A stretch of DNA of 46,995 nt from Chloroflexota bacterium. Lineage in GTDB: Bacteria > Chloroflexota > Anaerolineae > Caldilineales > Caldilineaceae. The stretch's first letter is position 1. Each line of letters begins with the position of its first letter. The stretch covers positions 1-46,995 of the forward strand of contig JAJRVT010000201.1 of assembly GCA_024277175.1 (NCBI GenBank), given 5' to 3'. Shown here one piece after another: positions 2,780 through 26,053 of the stretch. Both the position numbers and the translations under genes were made by a program. The notes under the pieces were generated by a model, which did not search any database, was not told the origin of the DNA, and worked only from the letters and a program-made list of their open reading frames with translations.

Positions 2780-3997
2780 TTATTCGTTCGGTAGAAAATA
2801 CGCAAAGACCTGATTCCCGACCATCAATCCCCGGCGGGTGAGGCGCACCCGATCGGCGTTCATTTCGATCAGGCCCCATTCCTGCAGCCGGATCAGTTCA
2901 TCCTCGAACGCTGCCGCCAACGTCACGGCATAGCGTTGTTGAAAGCGGGCAAAGGGGACGCCTTCCGTCACCAGACGCAACCCCAACATCATGGTTTCCC
3001 CCATACTCAGTCGCGGCCCAATCGTTTCGGTGAAGGCCGCCACCGATTGGCCGTCTGTGATCCGTTTAATGTAGTCCGCCACCGGTTTGCGATTGCCCCA
3101 CCGACGTTCTACAGGACCGTCATCCCCCTCCGCGATCAAATGGCTGTGTGCGCCAGGGCCGATGCCGAGATATCCCTGGTTGCGCCAGTAAATCAGATTG
3201 TGACGACAGGCGTAAGCTGGCGTCGCCGCCGCGTGCGTTCCCGCTGCGGGGTCGCCGGCGGTCATGCGGGCCCAGTTGGAGACTTCGTAATGGATATACC
3301 CCGCCTCACCTAACTCGTCCATGGCCAGTTCATACAGGTCGGCGGCCTCATCCTCATCGGGCTGGTCCACCCGGCCCACTTGAACCCAGTGATGAAGGGG
3401 CGTCTCCGGCTCGACGATCAGGCTGTACAGGCTCAGATGCTCGCTCTTCAGCGCCAGGGCCTTGCTCAGCGTATCCCGCCAGTGGGACGCAGGTTGATGG
3501 GGCAGGCCAAAAATAAGATCCAGGTTGATATTTTCAAAACCGGCGGCCCTTGCGCCGTCATAGGCCCGATAGACGTCGCCCACATCATGGATGCGGCCCA
3601 GAAAACCCAATTCGTCGGGCTGAAAGCTTTGGACGCCCATGCTCAGGCGATTGACGCCCAACCCGCGCAGCAACGCGAACTTATCCCGATCCACTGCGCC
3701 CGGGTTGGCCTCGCTGGAAAATTCGCACGTCGCGGAAAGGGTGAAGCAATCGTGCGCCTGCTGAACGATGCGGGTCAACTGGGCGGGGGTGAGAACGGTT
3801 GGCGTGCCGCCCCCCAGGAAAACCGTCTCCACCACGCGCCCGCTCAACGGCTCCCGCCACCGGGCCATCTCAGCGCAGATGGCGTCGACAGTGCGATCAT
3901 GCAGAGCGTCCAGCCCGGCGTAGGTGTTGAAATCGCAGTACGGGCATTTTTGCGCGCAAAATGGAATGTGAATGTAAAGCCCCAATGACGCAATCAC
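2780..3997 (-). CDS. hemW: radical SAM heme chaperone HemW (HemN-like, oxygen-independent coproporphyrinogen oxidase family)
   Basis: LYIHIPFCAQKCPYCDFNT CxxxCxxC radical-SAM motif at N-terminus; HemN C-terminal domain. Confidence 0.85.
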   Translation of the reverse strand: MIASLGLYIHIPFCAQKCPYCDFNTYAGLDALHDRTVDAICAEMARWREPLSGRVVETVFLGGGTPTVLTPAQLTRIVQQAHDCFTLSATCEFSSEANPGAVDRDKFALLRGLGVNRLSMGVQSFQPDELGFLGRIHDVGDVYRAYDGARAAGFENINLDLIFGLPHQPASHWRDTLSKALALKSEHLSLYSLIVEPETPLHHWVQVGRVDQPDEDEAADLYELAMDELGEAGYIHYEVSNWARMTAGDPAAGTHAAATPAYACRHNLIYWRNQGYLGIGPGAHSHLIAEGDDGPVERRWGNRKPVADYIKRITDGQSVAAFTETIGPRLSMGETMMLGLRLVTEGVPFARFQQRYAVTLAAAFEDELIRLQEWGLIEMNADRVRLTRRGLMVGNQVFAYFLPNE

Positions 3998-4092
3998 AAC
4001 GTTCTTCCTCTTCGACGCGGCTCTTCCCCCATCGTTGGCGGACGGGCGTTACGCCAAAGCCTGTTCGATGGGGGGAATGGCGCCTACGGAGG

Positions 4093-4770
4093 TCAACGAT
4101 TCTCCAGGCGGAAGCCGTGCCCGCGCACCGTGACCACATAGCGGAAGCTATCATCGATCTCGGCGATGCGTTCGCGCAGGCGGCGAACCAGGGCGTCGAT
4201 AGCCTGTTCACTCACGCCTTCGCCGCTGGCCTCAGGCCAGACAGCGTCTACGATCTGCTCACGCGTCACCACACCGCCGCCAGCGCCCCAAAGCGCTTCG
4301 AGCAGCCGGTATTGGTGCAAGCTCAGCGGCGGGTCGATCAATGCGCCATTGATCCAGATCTGGCGGGTTTCGGGGTCGAGGCGCATGCCCAGGTTTTCGT
4401 TCTCAAAGGTGAGAGGGGCGGTGGCGCCGGCGTCGACAAACGCCAGTTTGAAGCGCAGGGCGATTTGAATTTCATCGCCGTCATGGAGGGGCATGGGCTT
4501 GGTCAAATCCTGACCGTTTAGATGCGTGCCATTTTTGCTGCCCAGATCCTCCAGTTGATAGCCATCCCCCATCCACGTAATTCGGGCGTGGGTTCGGCTC
4601 ACCTGGCGGTCGGGCAGGGAAATGTCACATTCTTCACTACGTCCAATCACGAGGGGGTGCGTGCGGCTCAGAGGCCAGCGACGGCCCGCTTCCGCCCCGC
4701 GTTGCAGGACAAGCATGGCGTTTTCGCGACCTTTGCTGGTCACATCCTGGATATTGGTCTCAGTCGGCAT
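4093..4770 (-). CDS. FHA-domain protein fused to OmpR/PhoB-type winged-helix DNA-binding domain (trans_reg_C)
   Basis: N-terminal FHA signature ([24 protein letters not shown]...[10 protein letters not shown]...GDEIQI); C-terminal [13 protein letters not shown]...[10 protein letters not shown] winged helix. Confidence 0.75.
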
Positions 4771-4849
4771 ACCGGATCCTCTTGAAAATGGGCTGGGCCA
4801 ATCGATAACCAGAGTGGCTATCGATCGAACACGGTAGGATTTGCTCGAA

Positions 4850-4878
4850 TTGACACAGACGTTTGGCTAACGCATAAT
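4850..4878 (+). promoter_or_regulatory. sigma70-like promoter candidate TTGACA-17-CATAAT oriented toward the Ser/Thr kinase gene
   Basis: TTGACA at 4850-4855, 17-nt spacer, CATAAT at 4873-4878 inside an unusually AT-rich divergent intergenic region. Confidence 0.35.
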
Positions 4879-5125
4879 AAATAATCGCAGGTGTATCTTT
4901 CCAATTATGCTTGGGGAGGAAAAGCCGAACTTTTTGCGAACAGGCGCGCTTTCCACGACGACGCCCCGAAAATTCACGCTTTTTCGTCCCCAAACATTGA
5001 GAAGATACCAATAAAGTATATTATACCAAAAATATGACGCGAATAAAATGTAACGTCTGAATCTCCAGACATTAGACTTTAACAACTCCGATTTCGCATC
5101 GACGCCGACGGACAGGGCAATTACA

Positions 5126-6142
5126 GTGCAAAACATTTTGAACCCGGGGGACGTCCTCCGCAATCGATATGAAGTGATCGAACTGGTGGGCCAGGGCGGC
5201 ATGGGCGCGGTCTACAAAACCCGGGACCAGCGGCTCGATGGACGCATCTGTGCGGTGAAGGAAATCATCCCCTTCGCCTCATCCGGCGCCACCAACGATC
5301 AGGAACTGACCCAAATCGCCGATCAGTTCCACATGGAAGCCAGCATTTTAGCCCGGTTGGATCATCCCAATCTGCCCAAAGTGTCCGATTATTTTTCCCT
5401 CGGTCGGCGTGAATATCTGGTGATGGATTATGTTGAGGGGCGCGACCTGCAGGAGATCCTGCAACAGGCGCGACGTCGCGACGAATTCCTGGATGAGCGC
5501 CAAGTGCTGGCCTGGGCCGAACAACTACTGGACGCCTTAGAATACCTTCATGACCAGGATCCGCCGGTGGTGCATCGGGATATCAAACCCAGTAACATTA
5601 AGATTACCCCACGCGGGAACATCAAACTGGTCGATTTCGGTCTGGTTAAGATATTAGAACCTGATGATAGCCGTACGGTCACCGTTGTGCAAGGCCGCGG
5701 CACAGTGGCTTACACGCCGCTGGAGCAATATGGCGGCGACACCGGCTTCACCGACGCTCGCTCCGATATCTACAGCTTCGGCGCCACCCTCTACCACCTG
5801 CTCTCCGGTGAGTTGCCGGTGGACGCCAAGGAGCGCTTTTTACGCCCCGGTTGCCTGCCTCCCATCAGCGACTTCAACCCTGCGGTCTCCGATCAGGTCG
5901 AACGAGCCATTTTCCAGGCCCTCTCCATGCACCCCAATGAACGGCCCGCCAATGTGCGCGAGATGCGCATGCTGCTCACCGGCGCGGCCAGCCCCATGAG
6001 TCAACGGATTCGCGCCCAATCCCTGGGCGTCCCCGCTCCCCCCTCTCCCCAAAGCTGGGGGGCCATCCTGCGCCGCAACGGTGCGCTCATCGCCGCCGCC
6101 CTGACGCTGCTCGCCATCGCCGTCCTGGTGAGCATTTTCTAA
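5126..6142 (+). CDS. Hanks-type serine/threonine protein kinase with C-terminal transmembrane anchor
   Basis: [10 protein letters not shown] glycine loop, AVK lysine, HRDIKPSNI catalytic loop, DFGL, TPLEQ activation segment; hydrophobic C-terminal helix. Confidence 0.85.
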
Positions 6143-6153
6143 CCTGACTACGC

Positions 6154-8991
6154 TCACTGCTCCCTGCTCTCGCTCAGATCACTGGGCACATAGATTTCAT
6201 CGCCAGGACGCAGGAGGAAGCCGGGGCGCACCAATTCTGTGTTGACAGCCTGCAACAACTGAAGTGGAATGCCGAATTTGTCGGCGACGGACGCCCACGC
6301 GTCCCCGGGCTGAACGGTGTAATAGACGCCGTCGGCGCCGACGGTGAATGTAAGCGCGGTGGGAACCAGCAGGCGATCCCGCACCAGGAGCACGCCTTCG
6401 TTGCGCAGGGCCTGGGGGTTGGCGTACTGCAGTTCAGAGATGGTCAGGCCGAAACGCTTGGCGATCAATCCCCAATATTCACCCGGACGCACCTTGTAAA
6501 ATGAGAGCGAATCGCAAGGGCCGATGTTGACCGCCATCCCCCGGGCCAGCCCCCAACGCATGCGGCGGAAACGCTCCAGTTCATGTTCGGGGAAGTAGTT
6601 GACAGTGATGCTGTTGTCCTCACCCCGGGTGACCGCGCCCAGCTTACCGATGGCAACCTCAGCCGTGTTCATGGCCTCGATGGCGATATCCTCTGACGCC
6701 GCCTCCATCGCCTCCCGATCCCTGCGCGATGTGTCCACGTTGAGCAATCTACGCTCCTCGCCTTCAGGGTCGGTGCAGTAGATAGCGCCGCTGGCGTAGC
6801 CGTAGCGGGTAACATGGACCGGCCTGACCGGTTCGGTGGAGTAGGAGTCGAAAAGAGGGCCCGCGTCGCCGCCTTTGTCCAGCCAGGCCTGGCTGAAATA
6901 CTCGCCGCCTTCGCGACAACGCATGCGCGGAGGGCAATCGGGCAATTGAACCACATCATCTGGCGGGTCGAATGCCCACGCTTCGGGATCATCCGACGCC
7001 CCCAGTTCGGCCATCAGGTCAGGGTCGGCCATGACCGCCTCCATGAAGCGATTCCATACCGGCGCCGCGCCCGAAGAGCCGGTAGTGTTACGCATGGGCG
7101 TGGCGTCTGCATTGCCCATCCAGACGCCGGCCGTCAGGTATTTGGTGAAGCCGACCGTCCAGTTGTCCCGAAAATCGGTAGTGGTGCCGGTCTTGGCCGC
7201 GGCGGGCTTGCTGAGGCGCAGGGCGCTGTTGGCCCCAAAGGTGGGTGTGCGCGCCCGGTTGTCGCTGAGGATGTCGGTGACCTGAAAGGCCGCGGCCGGC
7301 GAGATGGCCTGGACCGGCTCCACCCGGGGAATGGGGTCGATGGAGCGATTTTGAGAGTCGAACACTTTGTACACCACCTCAGGCGGGCGATACTGTCCGC
7401 CGCTGGCGATGGTTGTAAAGCCATTCGTCAGGTCGATCAGGCTGATTTCGTTGCTGCCCAGAGCCAGCGCAAGATTATAGAAGCCCGGAATGCGATCCAG
7501 GCTCTTAACGCCCATAGCCTGCCCCACCTCCACCATGCGTTTCACGCCCACCTCGTCGAGCAGGCGCACGATGGGCACGTTAAGGCTGTTGCCCAGCGCG
7601 CCCCGGGCCGTCACCAGGCCATGAAATTTCTTGTCGTAGTTGGTGGGCTTGTAGTAGAGGCCGCCGCCCAGATCGTAGGTCACCGGCGTGTCCCAGAGGA
7701 TGGAGGCCGGACTGATGACCAGATCGTTGAACGCTGTCGAAAAAAGGATCGGCTTGATGGCGCTGCCAGGCTGGCGGGGGCTGCGGGTCATATTGACCTG
7801 ACCGTCGATCTCATCGCTGTCGAAATCAGCGCTCCCCACCATGACCAGAATATCAGACGTGTTGGGCTGCATGGCGATCAGGGCGCCGTTACCCATGGCA
7901 TGTTTGACGCCATATTTCTGAATCTGCCTGTTCACGGCATCTTCGGCCAATGCCTGCATGCGCAGATCCAGCGTGGTGTAGAGGTTCAGGCCAGCCCGCT
8001 CCAGATACCCCTCGCCCATGCGGGCGTCGATCGAATCGATGACGTACTGGACGAAATGGGGAGCGACCCACGCCGGCGGGCTGATGTCCGGGTTCAATTC
8101 AATGTCCTCAGCGAAGGCCTCATCCGCTGCCGTCGGGGTCAGCTTGCCCCGCTTGACCATCAGATCGAGCACGGTGCGCTGCCGTTCCTTCACATCATCG
8201 AAATTATTGTACGGATTCAAAAAACCGGGCGCTTGGGGAATGCCAGCCAGAAATGACGCCTCAGCCAGGGTCAGGTCAGCGGCCGGCTTGCGGAAATAAG
8301 TCTGGGCCGCGGCTTCCGGGCCGTAGGCCAGACTGCCATAGTTGAGCAAGTTGAGATACATCTCCAGCAACTCGTCCTTGGTGAACGTCTCAGTGAGCCG
8401 CTGGGCCAGACCCACTTCCAGGAGTTTCCGGTCCATGGACGGATCATAACGCTGTTCCGGCCCCATAAACAGGTTGCGGGCCAACTGCATGGTGATGGTG
8501 CTGGCGCCGGAGACGACTTCATCGTTACGCCAGTTATCCAGCGCCGCCTTGGCGATCCGTAACGGATCGACGCCGCTGTTAGAAAAGAAGGAGGCGTCCT
8601 CCGTGGCCACGGTGGCGTCGATCAGAAAGGGCGAGACGCGCTCCAGGCTAACCCAGGTGCGGCGGCCTTCGCCAAAAATTTCAGCCAACAGCTCGCCGTT
8701 GCGATCATAGAGATAGGTGGTCTGGAAGAGACGCGGTTCAGGACCGGGCTGATATTGGCGTAGATATTCTTCGACGGCCGTAGGCAGGTCTGACGCTGGC
8801 TTCTCTCCCACCATCATGCTGGTGTCGGCGCAGCCCCCGGCCAGCAGAGCGATCAACAACAGGGAGAGAACATAAATAGTGGATCGAAAATCGCGCAAGA
8901 GAATAACCATAGGTGTATATTGACTGAATAGCGGGTCGGCTAGATAATAGAGTCGGCGCGCTGACAGCGAAACCTCATTCGTAAACGTCAC
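6154..8991 (-). CDS. class A penicillin-binding protein (glycosyltransferase + transpeptidase) with two C-terminal LysM domains; start probably internal Met (~8910)
   Basis: GT51 motifs (RVSPFLIDATVATEDASFF), SAIKP (SxxK), KTGTT; C-terminal ...YKVRPGEYWGLIAKRFG... and ...YTVQPGDAWASVADKFG... LysM repeats; N-terminal TM helix. Confidence 0.85.
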   Translation of the reverse strand: MTFTNEVSLSARRLYYLADPLFSQYTPMVILLRDFRSTIYVLSLLLIALLAGGCADTSMMVGEKPASDLPTAVEEYLRQYQPGPEPRLFQTTYLYDRNGELLAEIFGEGRRTWVSLERVSPFLIDATVATEDASFFSNSGVDPLRIAKAALDNWRNDEVVSGASTITMQLARNLFMGPEQRYDPSMDRKLLEVGLAQRLTETFTKDELLEMYLNLLNYGSLAYGPEAAAQTYFRKPAADLTLAEASFLAGIPQAPGFLNPYNNFDDVKERQRTVLDLMVKRGKLTPTAADEAFAEDIELNPDISPPAWVAPHFVQYVIDSIDARMGEGYLERAGLNLYTTLDLRMQALAEDAVNRQIQKYGVKHAMGNGALIAMQPNTSDILVMVGSADFDSDEIDGQVNMTRSPRQPGSAIKPILFSTAFNDLVISPASILWDTPVTYDLGGGLYYKPTNYDKKFHGLVTARGALGNSLNVPIVRLLDEVGVKRMVEVGQAMGVKSLDRIPGFYNLALALGSNEISLIDLTNGFTTIASGGQYRPPEVVYKVFDSQNRSIDPIPRVEPVQAISPAAAFQVTDILSDNRARTPTFGANSALRLSKPAAAKTGTTTDFRDNWTVGFTKYLTAGVWMGNADATPMRNTTGSSGAAPVWNRFMEAVMADPDLMAELGASDDPEAWAFDPPDDVVQLPDCPPRMRCREGGEYFSQAWLDKGGDAGPLFDSYSTEPVRPVHVTRYGYASGAIYCTDPEGEERRLLNVDTSRRDREAMEAASEDIAIEAMNTAEVAIGKLGAVTRGEDNSITVNYFPEHELERFRRMRWGLARGMAVNIGPCDSLSFYKVRPGEYWGLIAKRFGLTISELQYANPQALRNEGVLLVRDRLLVPTALTFTVGADGVYYTVQPGDAWASVADKFGIPLQLLQAVNTELVRPGFLLRPGDEIYVPSDLSESREQ

Positions 8992-9420
8992 AACCGTTGC
9001 CAGTAAGTAGCCGAATCGTAGGTTTAGGCAGTATAATCGTAAACCAACGCTCGGTCAATAGTCGCACAGCGCATCTTTGTGGATCGATCCAACAACCTGT
9101 TCGAATTTGTCCTGTATCTTCTCAACAGTTTGGAATAGATACCTTGGAATGAAAGAAAACGAGTTTTGCGTGTCGCGGTTGCGAGGATCGCGCAGACTCA
9201 TAAAAGCTTGCCTTCGCTTCCAGATGATTGAGAAATCACTTCGCCATCGTATTACTCAGAGATAGGATTAGTCGTTAAATAATAAGCGTAACTTCCCGTG
9301 GTGATTTGCGTCATGATCTGCGCAGCGCAGCCGCGCCGCCCCTCATGGTTGCCGCCTGCCACAGGCGGCAATCGTTCATGACGAAGCCCCGACGTCAACT
9401 GTTGCAGGTGGAGGCAAACA

Positions 9421-12400
9421 ATGAAGCAAACTCTGCAGAGCCCAATGCATAACATGGCTAAACGATCGGTGACGACGCTAACTATGGCCCTTTTGTGGGC
9501 CGGCGTGTTGATTGCGCTGCTGCTAACCCCACGCGTAGCCGCGGCCCAGGGAGCGGTCCCCTACCTTCCCCAGTCCCTCGATGGCTGCTACGACGTTGCA
9601 GTCTACGGCGTCGGCCTCTATGACGGCGGCCAGGGACAAGTCACCATTCAACCGCCCCCGGGCGAAATTGTGCTGGCGTTGATAGAATGGGCGGGCGTCG
9701 AAGATACGACGCCTGGCGGCCTTACGCTGGATGGGACCAGTACGCTCACCATCAATGGCCAACCGGTGGTCGGCGCGCCGGCCGAGCCGCTCCAGTGGAA
9801 CGGCGGCGCCTTGATGGGCAACGCAGGCTATGACCCTCAGGGGTTCGCGGATGTGGGGCCGCGCGGCTGGTTCGCCTGGAACGCAGACATTGGGCCAGAT
9901 GGGCTGGAGTTTATCCCCGAGCACATGAGCCAACCGCTTACGTTGCAAATCGAGGACTGGGACGCGGCCACCATCGGCGGCCGTCGCGCTCGCCAAACCA
10001 ACGGCGCGTCCATCACCATCGTCTACCGCACCGATAGCGACGCCGATCCCGGCGTTTGCGGCGTGGAAAATAAAATTCAGATCCTGACGGGCATCGACAC
10101 CTATCACCAGAGCCAGAATCAGGACATCAGCGAGTTGCTGGTCTTCGACATTGACCCCGCCCCCATCGCGCGTACGGTGCGCATGTATTTCAGCCATGCC
10201 GGCACCGATCGCGGACAACAGGAATGCCGCGGCGGCGCGATCTGGATGGCCGTTGGCGACTCCTCGTCCACCCGCCCCGGCAGCGGCTTCTTTGTGCCTG
10301 AACATGACATTGTGGCCATCGGCGATACGAACCAGGACGGCGTGGCCCGAGGTTATGGCGTCAACGGCGGCGTGGAGATCGTCAACGATCCATTCACCTC
10401 GCCCAGCCTGCCTTGCACGCCCACGCTCAACCCCGCGCCCGATGAAACGTATGAACCCGGTCACCCCTACCCGGGCGGCGCGTCCACCGCACCGTACCGC
10501 TCACTGGCCATGGTCCCGCCCACAGGGGGTGATGTGGGCTGGCCAGGCGAATGGGGCGTGGTAGAGATGCGCGTCGTCGTCCCGCCCAACACCGAATGGA
10601 TGGCCTTCCAACTCGAATCGGAACGAGATCAGCACGGCGAATCGGGCGGATGGGTCGGCAACGGCGTCTTCGCCGTCATCCCCACCTCCACCCTGGGCGA
10701 CCGGGTGTGGGAGGACCTGGACGGCGATGGCATCCAGGACGCGGACGAGCCGGGCATTGCCGGCGCGACCATCAATCTCCGTAACGCCGCCGGTCAGTTG
10801 CTGGATTCGACCGCCACCAATGCGAACGGCCTCTACCAGTTCACAGATCTGGTCACCACCGACTATATCCTGGAGTTCGTCAAACCCGAGGGCTTCGCCC
10901 CCAGCCCCCAGAACGCGGGCGGACCGGGAAGCGAAGGCGTGGATAGCGACGCCGACCCGATCACGGGACGCACTGGGATCATCAGCCCCGCACCCAGCGA
11001 GGTGGACCTGGATTGGGACGCGGGCTTCTATCGCCAGGGCGCGCTGGGCGACACTGTCTGGATCGACGTCAACCGCAACGGCGTTCAGGATGAAGGGGAG
11101 CCGGGCTTGAACGGCGTCACGGTGCGTCTGCGCGGGGCCGGCGCGGACGACGTCTTTGGCACCAGCGATGACATCACCCGGCAGATGGTGACCGCGACCA
11201 ACGGCCAGAATGATGGGCGCTACCTCTTCGAGAACGTGTCACCCGGTCGCTATCGACTCACCTTCGACCTGCCAGCCGACTACCGTTTTACTCAGTCCAA
11301 TGTAGGCGACGACGACCGAGATTCGGACGCCGATCCGGCCACCGGCGAGACGGCCGCCTACGCCCTGATCTCCGGCGAGCGCAACCTGAGCGTCGACGCC
11401 GGCCTGATCCAACTGACGTCATCCATTCGCATCCAGAAGCTGCCCGATCTGCAGAAGATCGCGCGCGGCGCCACAGCCAACTTCCAACTGATCGTCCACA
11501 ACAACGGCGACAATCCACTCCACAATGTGACCGTCTCTGATCCGTTGGCGCCTGACTGCGACGCCAACATCGGCGATCTGAATACCGGCGCGCAGGTCAC
11601 CTATGGCTGCTCGCTGGCCGGCGTGGACGCGGACTTCGTCAACGTGGCCGCGGTCAGCGGCCAGGATGAGTTCGGCGTCCAGGTCAGCGATCAGGACAAC
11701 GCAGTGGTGGATGTGTTGCCGACGGTGGCCTTGACCAAGAGCGCCGCTCCCATCACACGGCCGGAGCCAGGCGGCGATTTCATCTTTACGCTGACCGTTC
11801 ACAACACCGCCAGCGAGCCGGTGACCATCACAGCGCTGAACGACACGAACCCGCTCAGCCGGGCCTGTCTCGATCTGATTGGAGAGACTCTGGCCGTGGA
11901 CGAGACGCACACATGCAGCTATGGGGTTCATCACACGGAAATCGCGGTCTATAAGAACGAAGCCGCCGTCACCGTGGAGGATGACGAGGGCAACCCGGCC
12001 CAGGCCAGCGCTCAGGCGACGGTCGAGGTCTTCGACGTCCCCCCCACCATTCGCGTGGTCAAAGAGGCGGACCCTGGCTTTGTTCTCCAGACTGGCGGCC
12101 AGGTGACCTTCACCGTGAGTATCTCCAACACCACGGTCGAGGAACTAACGCTATTTTTCCTGGAAGATGACATCCATGGCCCGCTGAATGGCCAGGGGAC
12201 CTGCGCCCTGCCCCAGACCCTGACGGTGGGCGGTGGCTACGCCTGTGCGTTCACTGCTTTCGTCACGCCCGGCGAAGATGGCGAGATTGATACAGTGACA
12301 GCCAAAGCCCGAGACGACGAAGGGAATGAGGCCAGCGCATCCGATACGGCCACGGTGTTACCCCTCACCCCCCGGGCTGAGTCAAGCGTCGGCGACTATG

Positions 12401-13104
12401 TCTGGCTGGACGCCAACGCCGACGGCATCCAGGATGAGGGTGAATCAGGCGTGGCTGGCGTCAAGGTGGAGTTGTTCAAGGCCGATGGGCAGGCTGCAGG
12501 CGTAACGGAGACGGACGCCGACGGTCATTATCTGTTCAAAGACCTGATTGCGGGCGACTACTACGTGGTGGTGACGCCCATGGCGAACAGCGGCGAATTC
12601 ATCGGCTTCAGTCCCATGCACCAGGGCGATGACCTGACCAAAGACAGCGATGTCTACCGCATCACTGAGGGTGATGTGGTCAAAGGTCGCACCGAGGTTT
12701 TCACCTTGGCGACCAAAGTGCAGGACTTGACGCGCGACGCAGGCCTGATCGCACCCACCGTCGTTGACCTGGCCAGCTTTACAGTGGAGCCCCATGGCGA
12801 CGCCGTGGTGATCGAGTGGGTGACCGACGCCGAAGCGGGAACCCTGGGCTATCATCTCTTCCGGGGCACGTCGCCGCTGCGCGTGGAGGCCGTCCGCATC
12901 ACCGGTGACCTGATTCCCAGCCAGGGGAGCGACGGTGGGGTTTACACGTTCACCGACGATTCTGTGGTCAACGACGTCACCTTCTACTACTGGCTGCGGG
13001 AAGTGGCGGGAGAGGAGTACACGGAATACGGTCCGGTGAGCATCATGGTCAGCAACGCAACCAATGCGGGCAGGCTCTTCCTGCCGCTGGTCAAAAGCGA
13101 GTGA
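9421..13104 (+). CDS. large secreted cell-surface protein with 3 SdrD-B/Cna-B-like repeats and 3 DUF11 repeat domains
   Basis: Signal peptide ([21 protein letters not shown]); repeated GDxVWxDxNxDGxQDxxExG...NGxYxF SdrD-B units; DUF11-like [13 protein letters not shown] units; highly acidic. Confidence 0.75.
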
Positions 13105-23581: not shown

Positions 23582-25114
23582 TCACTGGGCGTATGGCAGA
23601 TAAATCCTATCGCGAAGTTTGGCGACTTCGGCCCGCAGCGCATCGTCCTCGGCTATGTCTTGCTCCATCTTGGTCACGCCATGGCGGATGGTGCTGTGAT
23701 CGCGGCCGCCCAAAACCCGCCCGATTCGGGGATAGGAAAGAGCGTTCTCCGCCCGCAGCAGGTACATGGCCACATGCCGGGCGTGGGCCACCGGCTGGCT
23801 ACGCCCGCGGCCGATCAGTTCCTCCGGCGTCAGGTTGAAATGAAGAGCCACAATGCGCACCACCCCGTCCGGGCTGCACGGCTTGCGCTGGGGCGCGAGA
23901 TTGTCCATCATCTGTACGGCCAGTTCGTAAGTCAACGGCTGGTTGCTCATCTGTGACTGAATATGCAGCCGGTTGAGCGCCCCTTCCAACTCACGAATAT
24001 TGGTGTCGATCCGTTCAGCCACGAACATCAACACCTGGGGATCGATGGGGACGCCAAGCCGGTCGGCCTTTTTTTGCAGAATGGCGACCCGGGTTTCGAA
24101 ATCGGGCGGCTGAATATCGGCCTGCAAGCCGCCTTCGAACCGGCTGCGCAGCCGCTCCTCCAGCCCGCCCAGCGCTTTGGGCGGACGGTCGCTGCTCAAC
24201 ACTACTTGGCCGCCGGCCGCGTGGAGGTGATTGAAGGTGTGGAAAAATTCCTCCTGGGTCCGCTCTTTGCCATCCAAAAACTGAATGTCATCGATGAGCA
24301 GGACGTCCACCTGTCGATACTTCTCGCGGAATTCGTCCGTCTTCTGATGCCGAATGGAGTTGATCAAGTCGTTGGTGAATTGCTCCGACGAACAGTAGAG
24401 CACGATGCTCCCGTGGGCTTGGGCGTAGTTGCCAATGGCGTGTAAAAGGTGGGTCTTCCCCAACCCCACACCGCCATAGACGAAAAATGGGTTGTAACGC
24501 ATGCCCGGTTCCCGGGCGATAGCGCTGGCTGCGGCGTGGGCGAGCCGATTCTGGTCACCCACCACAAAGGCGTCGAACGTATATTCGCCCCGTAGTTGGC
24601 TCGTATAGCGCGACCGAAACGCCATGGGGATCGAGCGATCCTGTCGGGCCGCCGACGGCGATGATGACGTCCCTTGCGCCCAATGCCCCGTGTCGTCCAT
24701 TTCATCTGCCCGAGAACGGTTTCCGGCCTCACGACTGGCGGACGCCCCAACCGCCACCGCAGGCGTCACCTCCGCGCTGGCGGCCTGGTAGAGGGGGGTG
24801 GACGCCAACTCGGCATCGCCTTCCATGGTTTTTGGAGACTGCACCCGCAGGGTGACCTGAACGGACGAACGCCCCATATGGACGCGCAACTTCTTTTTGA
24901 TGGTGTTGAGTAGCTTTTGATGGAGCCACTCGTATGCAAACATGGTGGGCAGGCCGATGATGAACTCGCCGTCCTCATAGGCGATAAGCCAAGCATCGCG
25001 CACGTATGAATGAAAGACGCCAGGGTCCAGGCTCAGTTTCAATTCATCAAGAACGGAACGCCAGATTCGCTCCGGGTCGAACGTCTGTCTCGAGAAAGGG
25101 ACAGATCCCACCAT
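23582..25114 (-). CDS. dnaA: chromosomal replication initiator DnaA (ORF is open up to 25375, but domain I begins near 25114)
   Basis: DnaA domain I (IWRSVLDELKLSL...), AAA+ GGVGLGKTHLLHAIGN, C-terminal DNA-binding HTH (DHSTIRHGVTKMEQ). Confidence 0.85.
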   Translation of the reverse strand: MVGSVPFSRQTFDPERIWRSVLDELKLSLDPGVFHSYVRDAWLIAYEDGEFIIGLPTMFAYEWLHQKLLNTIKKKLRVHMGRSSVQVTLRVQSPKTMEGDAELASTPLYQAASAEVTPAVAVGASASREAGNRSRADEMDDTGHWAQGTSSSPSAARQDRSIPMAFRSRYTSQLRGEYTFDAFVVGDQNRLAHAAASAIAREPGMRYNPFFVYGGVGLGKTHLLHAIGNYAQAHGSIVLYCSSEQFTNDLINSIRHQKTDEFREKYRQVDVLLIDDIQFLDGKERTQEEFFHTFNHLHAAGGQVVLSSDRPPKALGGLEERLRSRFEGGLQADIQPPDFETRVAILQKKADRLGVPIDPQVLMFVAERIDTNIRELEGALNRLHIQSQMSNQPLTYELAVQMMDNLAPQRKPCSPDGVVRIVALHFNLTPEELIGRGRSQPVAHARHVAMYLLRAENALSYPRIGRVLGGRDHSTIRHGVTKMEQDIAEDDALRAEVAKLRDRIYLPYAQ

Positions 25115-26053
25115 CCTGGATTTTCCCTCATTGACGGAGACGTCAGCGGGCGAAACGGGGTCGGCTGCAGGCTCACCGCGACGCGACGTTGAACCGGCCC
25201 TCGGCGGAGCTATCCACTCTGACTGGTGGTCGGAAACGTCCACGACTGTAGCCGCAGGCATGGGCGCGCGCTGGAATTGACGCCGGTCTTCATGAGGGAA
25301 ATCGAAATCAACAGCCTGATAGTCGAGCAGAGAATCGGCGCTATGGCGGCGTGATGAGGCGGAATGAGATTTCAAGGTCGGTCCCCCAAAAAATATCTGA
25401 TCGAATGAATAGATAATGTCGCACTCGAAACAATACCACGGACTGCCGGAACAATTGTGAAAAAATAATGAATCGTCCCGTAAATTTCACTCTGTTTTGG
25501 CGCCTGTTTCAGGGACGCAAAACCCCACCGCGCGCGATGAGTCGCCCACACAGGCCCAAAAGTATGATCCGCAGTTGTTTCGTTTATTAGACCGAACCAA
25601 ACCCGTTAAAGTTTGCCCGGCCGAGGGGTGATACGCGCTACAACATCGGGTTCGCTGTTGCTGCTGGACACCCCATTACTTCCGTCAGAAGATGGGCGCC
25701 CAGTTGCGAGGCGATGAATTTGAAGCGATGAATTTGTATTGGACAGTCTACCAGATTCGAGCCAAGATCGCAATCCGTTTCATGTGAAATTTTGGACGAA
25801 TTCCTTTAACACCACCTGTTTTATTGTCAACTGATCGGCATTGAACATTTGTCCTACGCGAGATATGGCGCGCTTCTGCCGACGATCCACAAAATGGAAG
25901 ACAGCGCCAATATTGGTCAGCATCATAACTTTAAGGTTGAATCGAGCGCTGTCCAGCGACCGCTAACGCAACCTTACCCTTGCCTGACGCCTCTTCCGAG
26001 TTACCCCCAGTCGCCCCCAGGTAATCCCCAGAGTTATCCCCGAAGTGGGCGAG

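Follow-up and report, generated by a model that had tools for sequence, protein, structure and literature searches.

We analyzed a window of 46,995 nucleotides (positions 1 to 46,995 of contig JAJRVT010000201.1, assembly GCA_024277175.1, from a Chloroflexota bacterium of the Caldilineaceae) and, within it, a divergent gene pair that encodes a putative regulator, in which an FHA domain is fused to an OmpR/PhoB-type winged helix-turn-helix (wHTH), and a Hanks-type Ser/Thr kinase. An earlier sequence-only reading of the window had listed the two genes, a 355-nt spacer with a promoter and an inverted repeat (the dyad) inside it, and a penicillin-binding protein (PBP) gene 11 nt past the kinase. 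Each of these features was found where that reading had placed it, and the observation itself is confirmed. The genes of the locus and the spacer are as follows, as taken from the open reading frame list and, for the genes, from Pfam.

4093-4770, minus strand: regulator gene, 225 amino acids (aa), FHA domain followed by an OmpR/PhoB-type wHTH.
4771-5125: spacer between the regulator and kinase genes, 355 nt.
5126-6142, plus strand: kinase gene, 338 aa, predicted tail-anchored Hanks-type Ser/Thr kinase with no ectodomain.
6154-8991, minus strand: class A PBP gene, 945 aa, LysM-bearing; a neighbor only, outside the conserved module, with 11 nt between the kinase stop (6142) and its own stop (6154).

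Pfam placed an FHA domain at residues 41-103 of the regulator (PF00498; E 1.2e-24, 87 bits against a cutoff of 20.7) and a Trans_reg_C domain at residues 149-222 (PF00486; E 4.9e-15, 55.8 bits against a cutoff of 26.2), with no match to Response_reg or BTAD anywhere in the 225 residues. These assignments bear out the proposal that the protein is an FHA-then-wHTH fusion which lacks a receiver domain and a BTAD and reverses the domain order of EmbR. NCBIfam models matched the regulator at sub-threshold scores only, with GarA, OdhI and FhaB on the N-terminal half (OdhI 67 bits against a cutoff of 200) and PhoB/RpaB-type response regulators on the C-terminal half. The response-regulator matches were limited to residues ~118-225, and PhoB (42.8 against a cutoff of 296) and RpaB were the best for the wHTH. 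The corresponding segments of the gene are listed here together with a threonine codon that proved central to the interpretation.

4432-4719, minus strand: FHA domain, residues 18-113, with the phosphothreonine-binding set G43, R44, S58, R59, H61, S78, N80, G81 and T82.
4420-4422, minus strand: Thr117 (T117) codon in the linker motif A-T-x-P-L, a candidate phospho-acceptor and FHA ligand.
4099-4386, minus strand: OmpR/PhoB-type winged helix, residues 129-224, from Trans_reg_C and the model topology.

An AlphaFold2 model of the regulator consisted of two confident domains, a disordered N-terminus (residues 1-16) and a disordered linker (residues 115-126) in which the predicted local distance difference test (pLDDT) fell below 50; the predicted template modeling score (pTM) was 0.50, with no fixed interdomain orientation. 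The FHA domain was modeled at a pLDDT of 85-94 and lay within 1.2 A root-mean-square deviation of the GarA and OdhI FHA structures, to which it is 38-40% identical. Its pocket residues were invariant or nearly so in 47 orthologs and in 62 family representatives (50%-identity clusters, down to 38% identity), and by these residues the pocket is intact and predicted to be competent for phosphothreonine binding. In the C-terminal domain, strands at residues 129-132 and 137-140, helices at 151-162, 170-177 and 188-205, and strands at 211-216 and 219-224 form a pattern of two β-strands, three helices and a β-hairpin, and the closest solved sequences were the DNA-binding domains of RegX3 and of PhoB-type response regulators. 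The recognition helix of this wHTH was invariant across the Caldilineaceae. No solved structure spanning both domains appeared in the structure comparison.

Outside the domain cores, the sole striking conserved feature was T117, which sits in the disordered linker and was kept in all 47 orthologs and in 58 of the 62 family representatives. We rejected the notion that this residue is a generic C-terminal feature of FHA domains, given that only 3 of the 27 FHA domains of other proteins aligning that far carry Thr in the column. A phosphothreonine tail of the kind used by GarA or DgcB was likewise rejected, as residues 1-16 of the regulator are disordered but not conserved. Many FHA domains prefer an aliphatic residue three positions after the phosphothreonine (pT+3), and mycobacterial Ser/Thr kinases favor acidic residues upstream of the acceptor together with a hydrophobic residue at +3. 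The T117 motif is compatible with both sets of preferences, which we take as a lead rather than a test.

The partner gene encodes a protein with a Pkinase domain at residues 15-236 (PF00069; E 5.6e-42, 144 bits), whose catalytic residues K45, H150-R151-D152, N157 and D170-F171-G172 all fall in conserved columns of an alignment of 41 orthologs. Two threonines of the activation loop, T184 and T186, were invariant in the same 41 kinases. Most orthologs retained a C-terminal hydrophobic helix and extended at most about ten residues beyond it. The protein does not belong with the PASTA kinases, since it ends at the transmembrane helix and the NCBIfam model PknB_PASTA_kin reached 205 against a cutoff of 450, over the kinase domain only. 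Judged from these motifs and from the hydrophobic helix, the kinase appears to be competent and tail-anchored.

5675-5683, plus strand: activation-loop T184-V-T186, candidate autophosphorylation and FHA docking sites.
6083-6139, plus strand: C-terminal transmembrane tail anchor, residues 320-338, a 19-residue hydrophobic stretch with the stop codon directly after it.

Just before the anchor (residues ~309-338, 6050-6142), most orthologs share a juxtamembrane pattern of Trp followed roughly by x3-[F/I/L]-x2-[N/H]-[R/G]-x-L. This may be a membrane-interface element relevant to control of a kinase that has no sensor, and we speculate that the lack of an ectodomain points to sensing within the membrane or via a partner protein.

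Thousands of relatives of the regulator are present in databases. The best 120 were 73-97% identical to it and usually labeled 'FHA domain-containing protein', and those with a named source came from Caldilineaceae, Caldilineae, Litorilinea or Chloroflexota. Orthologs were recovered across Anaerolineae at 46-97% identity, with values of 75-97% inside a single family that drop to about 50% at the level of the class. An exhaustive search without profiles, run over 1.84 billion representatives of clusters, returned 125 matches at E ≤ 1e-30, and about 62 of the best 150 matches were compact proteins of 200-250 aa that matched over both domains; the named members among ten distant clusters were Chloroflexota too.

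We examined the surroundings of the regulator in 48 orthologous genome loci from Caldilineales, Anaerolineales, Ardenticatenales, Aggregatilineales and Pelolinea, the 48th of which lies on a contig too short to test. A kinase ortholog adjoined the regulator in all 47 testable loci, divergently in 45 and co-directionally in 2, and these kinases were 50-72% identical to that of the window except in one locus (L032, 27%). Eight additional close relatives had sufficient flanking sequence, and seven of them also had the kinase, which brings the total to 54 of 55 testable loci, and in the reverse test, anchored on the kinase, the regulator lay divergently upstream in 61 of 63 testable metagenome loci. 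Co-conservation of the two genes, on which the sequence-only reading had staked its proposal, is thus borne out from both sides. Outer flanks varied among lineages while the pair stayed together. All three family members inspected at 39-44% identity had a divergent Hanks kinase, each with a different C-terminal region, and are listed by locus.

L155, 938-2863: distant kinase partner of an FHA-wHTH member, with a PQQ propeller.
L156, 1081-2838: distant kinase partner of an FHA-wHTH member, with an unassigned region of ~300 aa.
L157, 1-2761 and 3817-4629: kinase partner with a PD40 propeller and TSP3 repeats, and a PP2C phosphatase directly downstream of the L157 member.

No PP2C phosphatase was found among the annotated open reading frames of the window. 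Adjacency of about 97% both ways, together with paralogous pairs whose kinase ectodomains are unrelated, is the pattern of cognate signaling pairs, and the conservation resembles what would be expected of such pairs as they diversify by sensor swap. Collectively, these comparisons make it highly probable that the regulator and the kinase form a functional pair. That the adjacency is merely inherited gene order with no functional coupling might be argued from hemW, coaD, yceD and rpmF, which lie downstream of the regulator and are also syntenic within the Caldilineaceae; however, outside the Caldilineaceae and a few Anaerolineales this downstream gene order is lost, whereas the regulator and the kinase stay side by side. 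Distant family members are likewise paired, with kinases of other kinds, and the promoters of the two genes are interlocked and conserved as described below. We consider simple inheritance of gene order scarcely credible as an explanation.

We then turned to the spacer, in which an unbiased scan for 7- to 9-mers across 35 non-redundant orthologous spacers found that only two elements, both of them promoter elements, exceeded shuffled sequences.

4850-4878, plus strand: predicted kinase promoter TTGACA-N17-CATAAT, with 11 of 12 consensus matches and a predicted start near 4885, about 7 nt past CATAAT.
5028-5020, minus strand: predicted regulator promoter, extended -10 element TGGTATAAT, with a predicted start near 5013; it faces the kinase promoter.

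The TTGACA-17-CATAAT promoter of the sequence-only reading is therefore real, and no second such site exists in the 47-kb window, but it is predicted to serve the kinase gene and not the regulator. Its family form, TTGACAG-N17-(A)CGCATAAT, also written TTGACAG...ACGCATAAT, points toward the kinase and was seen in 31 of 46 orthologous spacers; of the 22 TTGACA..CGCATAAT sites that the 1.08 Mb of sequence from these loci contained, 21 fell inside a regulator-kinase spacer. A single match to the regulator -10 pattern was present in each of 20 of these 46 spacers, in 17 of them as exact TGGTATAAT, whereas the background rate is 4.9e-5 per nt. The element ranked among the top conserved k-mers and always lay beyond the kinase promoter. 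The assignment of each promoter to its gene is supported by locus L074, which has lost the kinase, and in which the kinase promoter has decayed and TGGTATAAT is intact. We accordingly describe both as conserved promoters by prediction. The spacer had also been called strikingly AT-rich, which is overstated: its GC content of 44.5%, set against 60.0% for the window, lies inside the 41.5-53% range of the other intergenic regions.

The two promoters face each other, each within the leader of the other gene. In relatives with 96-97% identical regulators the -10 elements are about 14 nt apart and the predicted starts nearly coincide, so that promoter occupancy there should be mutually exclusive. 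By eye, no second TGTCA-like half-site was seen near the kinase -35, and Rfam, scanned over 4000-9500 with E values of up to 1 allowed, gave no match, with no known riboswitch or small RNA in the spacer. A terminator-like hairpin with a T-rich run (5051-5074, minus strand) stands just upstream of the regulator extended -10 and is kept in the closest relatives; it could be an insulator of the regulator promoter or a structure in the kinase leader.

Taken as a whole, the evidence is best explained if the pair is a dedicated two-component-like system that signals through Ser/Thr phosphorylation, a reading that we think probable, with some reserve, on the comparative data. The kinase would be held at the membrane by its C-terminal tail anchor, with no external sensor domain, and would autophosphorylate on T184 and T186. 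The FHA domain of the regulator would then dock on the phosphorylated kinase, in the manner of EmbR on PknH, and the kinase would phosphorylate linker T117, whose A-T-x-P-L motif supplies the aliphatic +3 residue. The FHA domain of a second protomer would bind pT117 in trans, and the resulting head-to-tail dimer would bring two winged helices together and switch DNA binding, taking the role that receiver dimerization plays in OmpR/PhoB regulators. The face-to-face promoters, if used as predicted, would interlock expression of the kinase and the regulator. The trans arrangement is suggested by geometry: in the FHA fold the binding pocket lies at the opposite end from the C-terminal strand, and T117 lies ~4 residues past the last FHA strand.

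Several observations weigh against this scheme. The argument for binding in trans draws on general FHA topology rather than on inspected coordinates, and conservation of T117 might instead reflect structure or an interface; the model gives no confident arrangement of the two domains. The kinase has no sensor domain, which leaves the input unexplained, and the k-mer scan of the 35 spacers found no operator-like conserved motif besides the two promoters. Two kinase loci had no regulator within 1.6-2.5 kb, and L074, an 84% relative on the same contig as L068, has the regulator but lacks a kinase within 6 kb; genes for an NgoMIV-type restriction enzyme and for an N6/N4 methyltransferase occupy the kinase position (3393-5772) there. 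The dimerization switch driven by phosphorylation of T117 is the more tentative part of the proposal, which we hold to be possible rather than probable.

The same features also permit a simpler arrangement in which docking and sequestration suffice, with the phosphorylated kinase holding the regulator at the membrane or releasing it, the regulator itself remaining unphosphorylated and T117 being conserved for another reason. The kinase is membrane-anchored, the FHA pocket is intact, and the invariant T184-V-T-V of the activation loop offers a docking motif with an aliphatic residue at pT+3. There is also a precedent in the FHA regulator EmbR2, which binds PknH yet stays unphosphorylated (PMC4601284). 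However, such a scheme leaves unexplained why 58 of the 62 representatives maintain a Thr with an aliphatic +3 residue in a disordered linker, and we judge it unlikely.

Alternatively, the FHA domain could read some other phosphoprotein, or an unphosphorylated partner as GarA does with metabolic enzymes, with the kinase linked to the regulator by shared expression only. The domain is indeed most similar to those of GarA and OdhI, L074 retains the regulator with no adjacent kinase, and hemW follows the regulator in 30 of the 48 loci, all of which speak for this reading. This gene, which encodes a HemW/HemN-like radical SAM protein on the same strand (2780-3997 in the window), begins 95 nt past the regulator in the window and overlaps the regulator stop codon by 4 nt in L065 (1947-3164) and L066 (882-2099), where the overlap suggests that the two genes are co-transcribed. 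Such a partner would not account for the ~97% adjacency in both directions, which extends to paralogous subfamilies with unrelated kinase ectodomains, and the N-terminal Thr motif of the GarA type is not conserved in the regulator; we regard this explanation as improbable.

The sequence-only reading had instead proposed that a regulator dimer autoregulates the pair at the dyad and that the module controls cell-wall synthesis together with the LysM-bearing PBP.

4801-4825, minus strand: dyad ATCGATA-N11-TATCGAT, likely an RNA stem-loop in the 5' untranslated region (5'UTR) of the regulator.

The dyad is present and statistically unexpected, being unique in the window with no match in 100 shuffles, and it is longer than had been stated, with 11-nt arms (ATCGATAACCA and TGGCTATCGAT), one mismatch and a 3-nt center. 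It lies ~25 nt upstream of the kinase -35, centered near -72, which is in keeping with a regulatory site. Its role as an operator did not hold up, since the sequence is missing from most orthologous spacers, is not conserved beyond relatives of ~94% identity or closer even though the recognition helix is invariant across the Caldilineaceae, and has been deleted in L072/L073 (an 80% relative). Furthermore, OmpR/PhoB domains usually bind direct repeats. On these grounds a conserved operator was rejected.

A different picture emerged from the four closest sequences, where each of the five stem substitutions is a transition that preserves pairing, as G.U or A-U, on the regulator-sense strand and would produce a C.A mismatch on the other strand. 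Predicted folding energies were -17.7, -16.4, -9.3 and -9.7 kcal/mol for the regulator-sense strand against -9.3, -7.8, -5.4 and -7.2 kcal/mol for the opposite strand. Across the 94-97% relatives the palindrome degrades as DNA but RNA pairing is retained. In L064 the DNA palindrome has decayed, with 3 mismatches in 11 positions, yet all pairs persist as G.U in the regulator-sense RNA, and L067 has a hairpin of unrelated sequence at the same place. In this four-sequence sample, an RNA stem-loop in the regulator leader is a better fit than a protein operator, a result that we regard as suggestive. For the stretch from the regulator ATG to the kinase -35, folding z-scores were inconsistent (-3.4 to +2.1), and a family-wide hairpin there was rejected.

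The cell-wall half of the proposal fared no better. The PBP (Transgly, Transpeptidase and two LysM domains by Pfam) lies 11 nt from the kinase in the window, and L064, a 97% relative, has the same arrangement. No PBP adjoins the kinase in the 47 kinase-bearing genome loci or in L067, and we rejected the gene as a conserved third partner of the STPK-FHA-PBP kind that had been envisaged. Its position is taken elsewhere by GT2/MutS2, a CrtI-like oxidase, a NUDIX gene, a URO-D-like gene or a large GH3 protein. In 16 loci of the Anaerolineales the gene directly past the kinase encodes the last of these, a membrane-anchored protein of ~1000 aa, and the two genes converge wherever they lie on opposite strands. 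The loci that bear GH3 are listed on the following line.

L022-L030, L034, L035, L038, L039, L042, L044, L046 and L048 (for example L028, 1232-4435): GH3 gene beside the kinase.

These GH3 (NagZ-like) envelope enzymes flanking the kinase would speak for a cell-wall role; the association is lineage-specific to the Anaerolineales, however, and GH3 was not retained as a conserved partner. Together with the PBP of the window it gives a weak, lineage-specific hint of an envelope connection. In summary, the earlier interpretation is partly supported, since the data bear out the module but neither the operator nor a link to the PBP, and we consider the combination of autoregulation at the dyad with control of cell-wall synthesis very improbable.

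The spacer has also been reshaped by insertion.

4885-5012: lineage-specific insertion of 128 nt with long terminal inverted repeats (I1/I2), between the promoters.

This segment is missing from L064, L065 and L066, whose regulators are 96-97% identical to that of the window, and it accounts for most of the structure predicted in the leader. By parting the promoters it would give an antisense overlap of about 128 bp between the two transcripts in the window. Its termini resemble those of an independent insert in L069 (692-812), a 94% relative whose 480-nt spacer (574-1053) contains two short inserts with terminal inverted repeats and apparent target-site duplications, CATAATT and ATGTATTTG. 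The related L069 copy has the CATAATT duplication; no clear duplication surrounds 4885-5012. No further copy of the 128-nt insert was found in the window or in 63 genome loci, the L069 insert being the one related copy. The segment is probably an element resembling a miniature inverted-repeat transposable element, and the comparison suggests a hot spot in this spacer for insertions of small size, whose repetition probably explains why spacers range from about 200 to 1300 nt in the Caldilineaceae.

Two further observations concern the wider window. It contains dnaA (23582-25375, minus strand) with a 678-nt intergenic region upstream (25376-26053), and recA, rny, htpG, holB, rplA and nusG nearby; the window may lie close to the chromosomal replication origin. 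Divergent from the PBP gene, across a 429-nt spacer, is a gene for a secreted protein of 1227 aa (9421-13104) with three SdrD B-like repeats and DUF11/DUF7507 and SpaA-type domains.

Routes from Hanks kinases to transcription are mostly pleiotropic, one-off cases, with PknH-EmbR as the main dedicated pair that uses an FHA regulator. The pair described here, compact and strongly conserved, follows two-component genetic logic with a different chemistry, and sensor domains vary among the paralogous pairs. Should the T117/FHA switch prove real, it would offer a clean, portable case of a phosphothreonine reader in place of the receiver on an OmpR-type output, useful for understanding the evolution of signaling modules and for synthetic circuits orthogonal to His-Asp systems. 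The pair also offers defined residues and promoters in the cultivable Caldilineae, for which regulatory genetics is almost absent; among cultured members, Litorilinea aerophila carries the pair. A broader generalization is that Chloroflexota carry a family of Ser/Thr two-component-like systems, in which Hanks kinases with interchangeable sensors (a PQQ propeller, a PD40 propeller plus TSP3 repeats, or no sensor at all) are encoded divergently from small FHA-wHTH regulators, and a phosphorylated linker threonine, read in trans by the FHA domain of the partner protomer, drives the dimerization that aspartyl phosphate drives in receivers, with the pair of the window as a sensor-less core that spans Anaerolineae and has mutually exclusive face-to-face promoters. 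We put this forward as a conjecture, somewhat unlikely to hold in full.

Among characterized systems, PknH/EmbR of M. tuberculosis is alike in that a membrane Hanks kinase is encoded beside a transcription factor with an OmpR-type winged helix and an FHA domain; the EmbR FHA domain is needed for interaction with PknH, and phosphorylation raises EmbR DNA binding (PMC4601284). EmbR is, however, a 388-aa protein in the order wHTH-BTAD-FHA (PMC4601284), whereas the regulator is a 225-aa FHA-wHTH protein with no BTAD match, and with its domain order reversed it does not belong to the EmbR/SARP group. Only the FHA part aligns to the EmbR structures (2fez/2ff4), at 34% identity and 1.7 A. EmbR has no described counterpart of the conserved linker Thr motif, and PknH carries an extracellular sensor domain that the kinase of the window lacks. 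The OmpR/PhoB-family response regulators PhoB, RegX3 and RpaB resemble the regulator in their Trans_reg_C output, overall size and short linker, and their genes too are paired with one for a membrane kinase. The regulator differs in having neither a receiver (no Response_reg match, which places it outside the two-component response regulators) nor a phospho-acceptor Asp, in taking its input through FHA, and in pairing with a Ser/Thr rather than a histidine kinase.

The placement of an FHA domain in the position of a receiver has other instances. In Bdellovibrio DgcB, an FHA-GGDEF protein, FHA likewise stands in the receiver's place before a response-regulator output, and activation comes from a phosphothreonine ligand that lies in a disordered part of the same protein (PMC6733907; structures 6hbz/6hc0/6hc1). 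Both features make it a structural precedent for the scheme proposed here. DgcB differs in its diguanylate cyclase output, in a phospho-site that lies in an N-terminal tail, and in a kinase that is not encoded as a neighboring partner. The sigma-54 enhancer-binding proteins of Myxococcus xanthus that Jelsbak and colleagues are said to have described in 2005 reportedly have FHA at the position of an NtrC-type receiver and are presumed to be fed by Ser/Thr kinases. They are much larger proteins with an AAA+ sigma-54 core, a Fis-type helix-turn-helix and another mechanism, and they have no fixed divergent kinase pair.

Linkage of a kinase to a small DNA-binding protein is seen with PknL, which is almost without an ectodomain and whose gene neighbors that of Rv2175c. 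Rv2175c is a small DNA-binding protein of the winged-helix type, and PknL phosphorylates it at a Thr within a disordered stretch (PMC4601284). Rv2175c differs from the regulator in having no FHA domain, an N-terminal phospho-site and an atypical wHTH. GarA and OdhI have the closest solved FHA domains and are regulated through a self-derived phosphothreonine, but they lack a DNA-binding domain, and the regulator neither conserves their N-terminal Thr motif nor falls within their equivalog families. EspM of Mycobacterium marinum is a characterized transcription factor that, like the regulator, has its FHA domain at the N-terminus and its DNA-binding region at the C-terminus (PMC11005418); it differs in having two helix-turn-helix motifs around a helical bundle and no OmpR-type winged helix, and no cognate adjacent kinase is described. 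The literature searched, with subscription journals outside its coverage, yielded no description of FHA fused directly to Trans_reg_C or of the pairing of such a protein with a kinase. Collectively, these comparisons indicate that the FHA-wHTH/kinase pairs are a real, widespread and uncharacterized family which, given the lack of a receiver and of a BTAD and the reversed domain order of the regulator, belongs neither with PknH-EmbR nor with the two-component systems.

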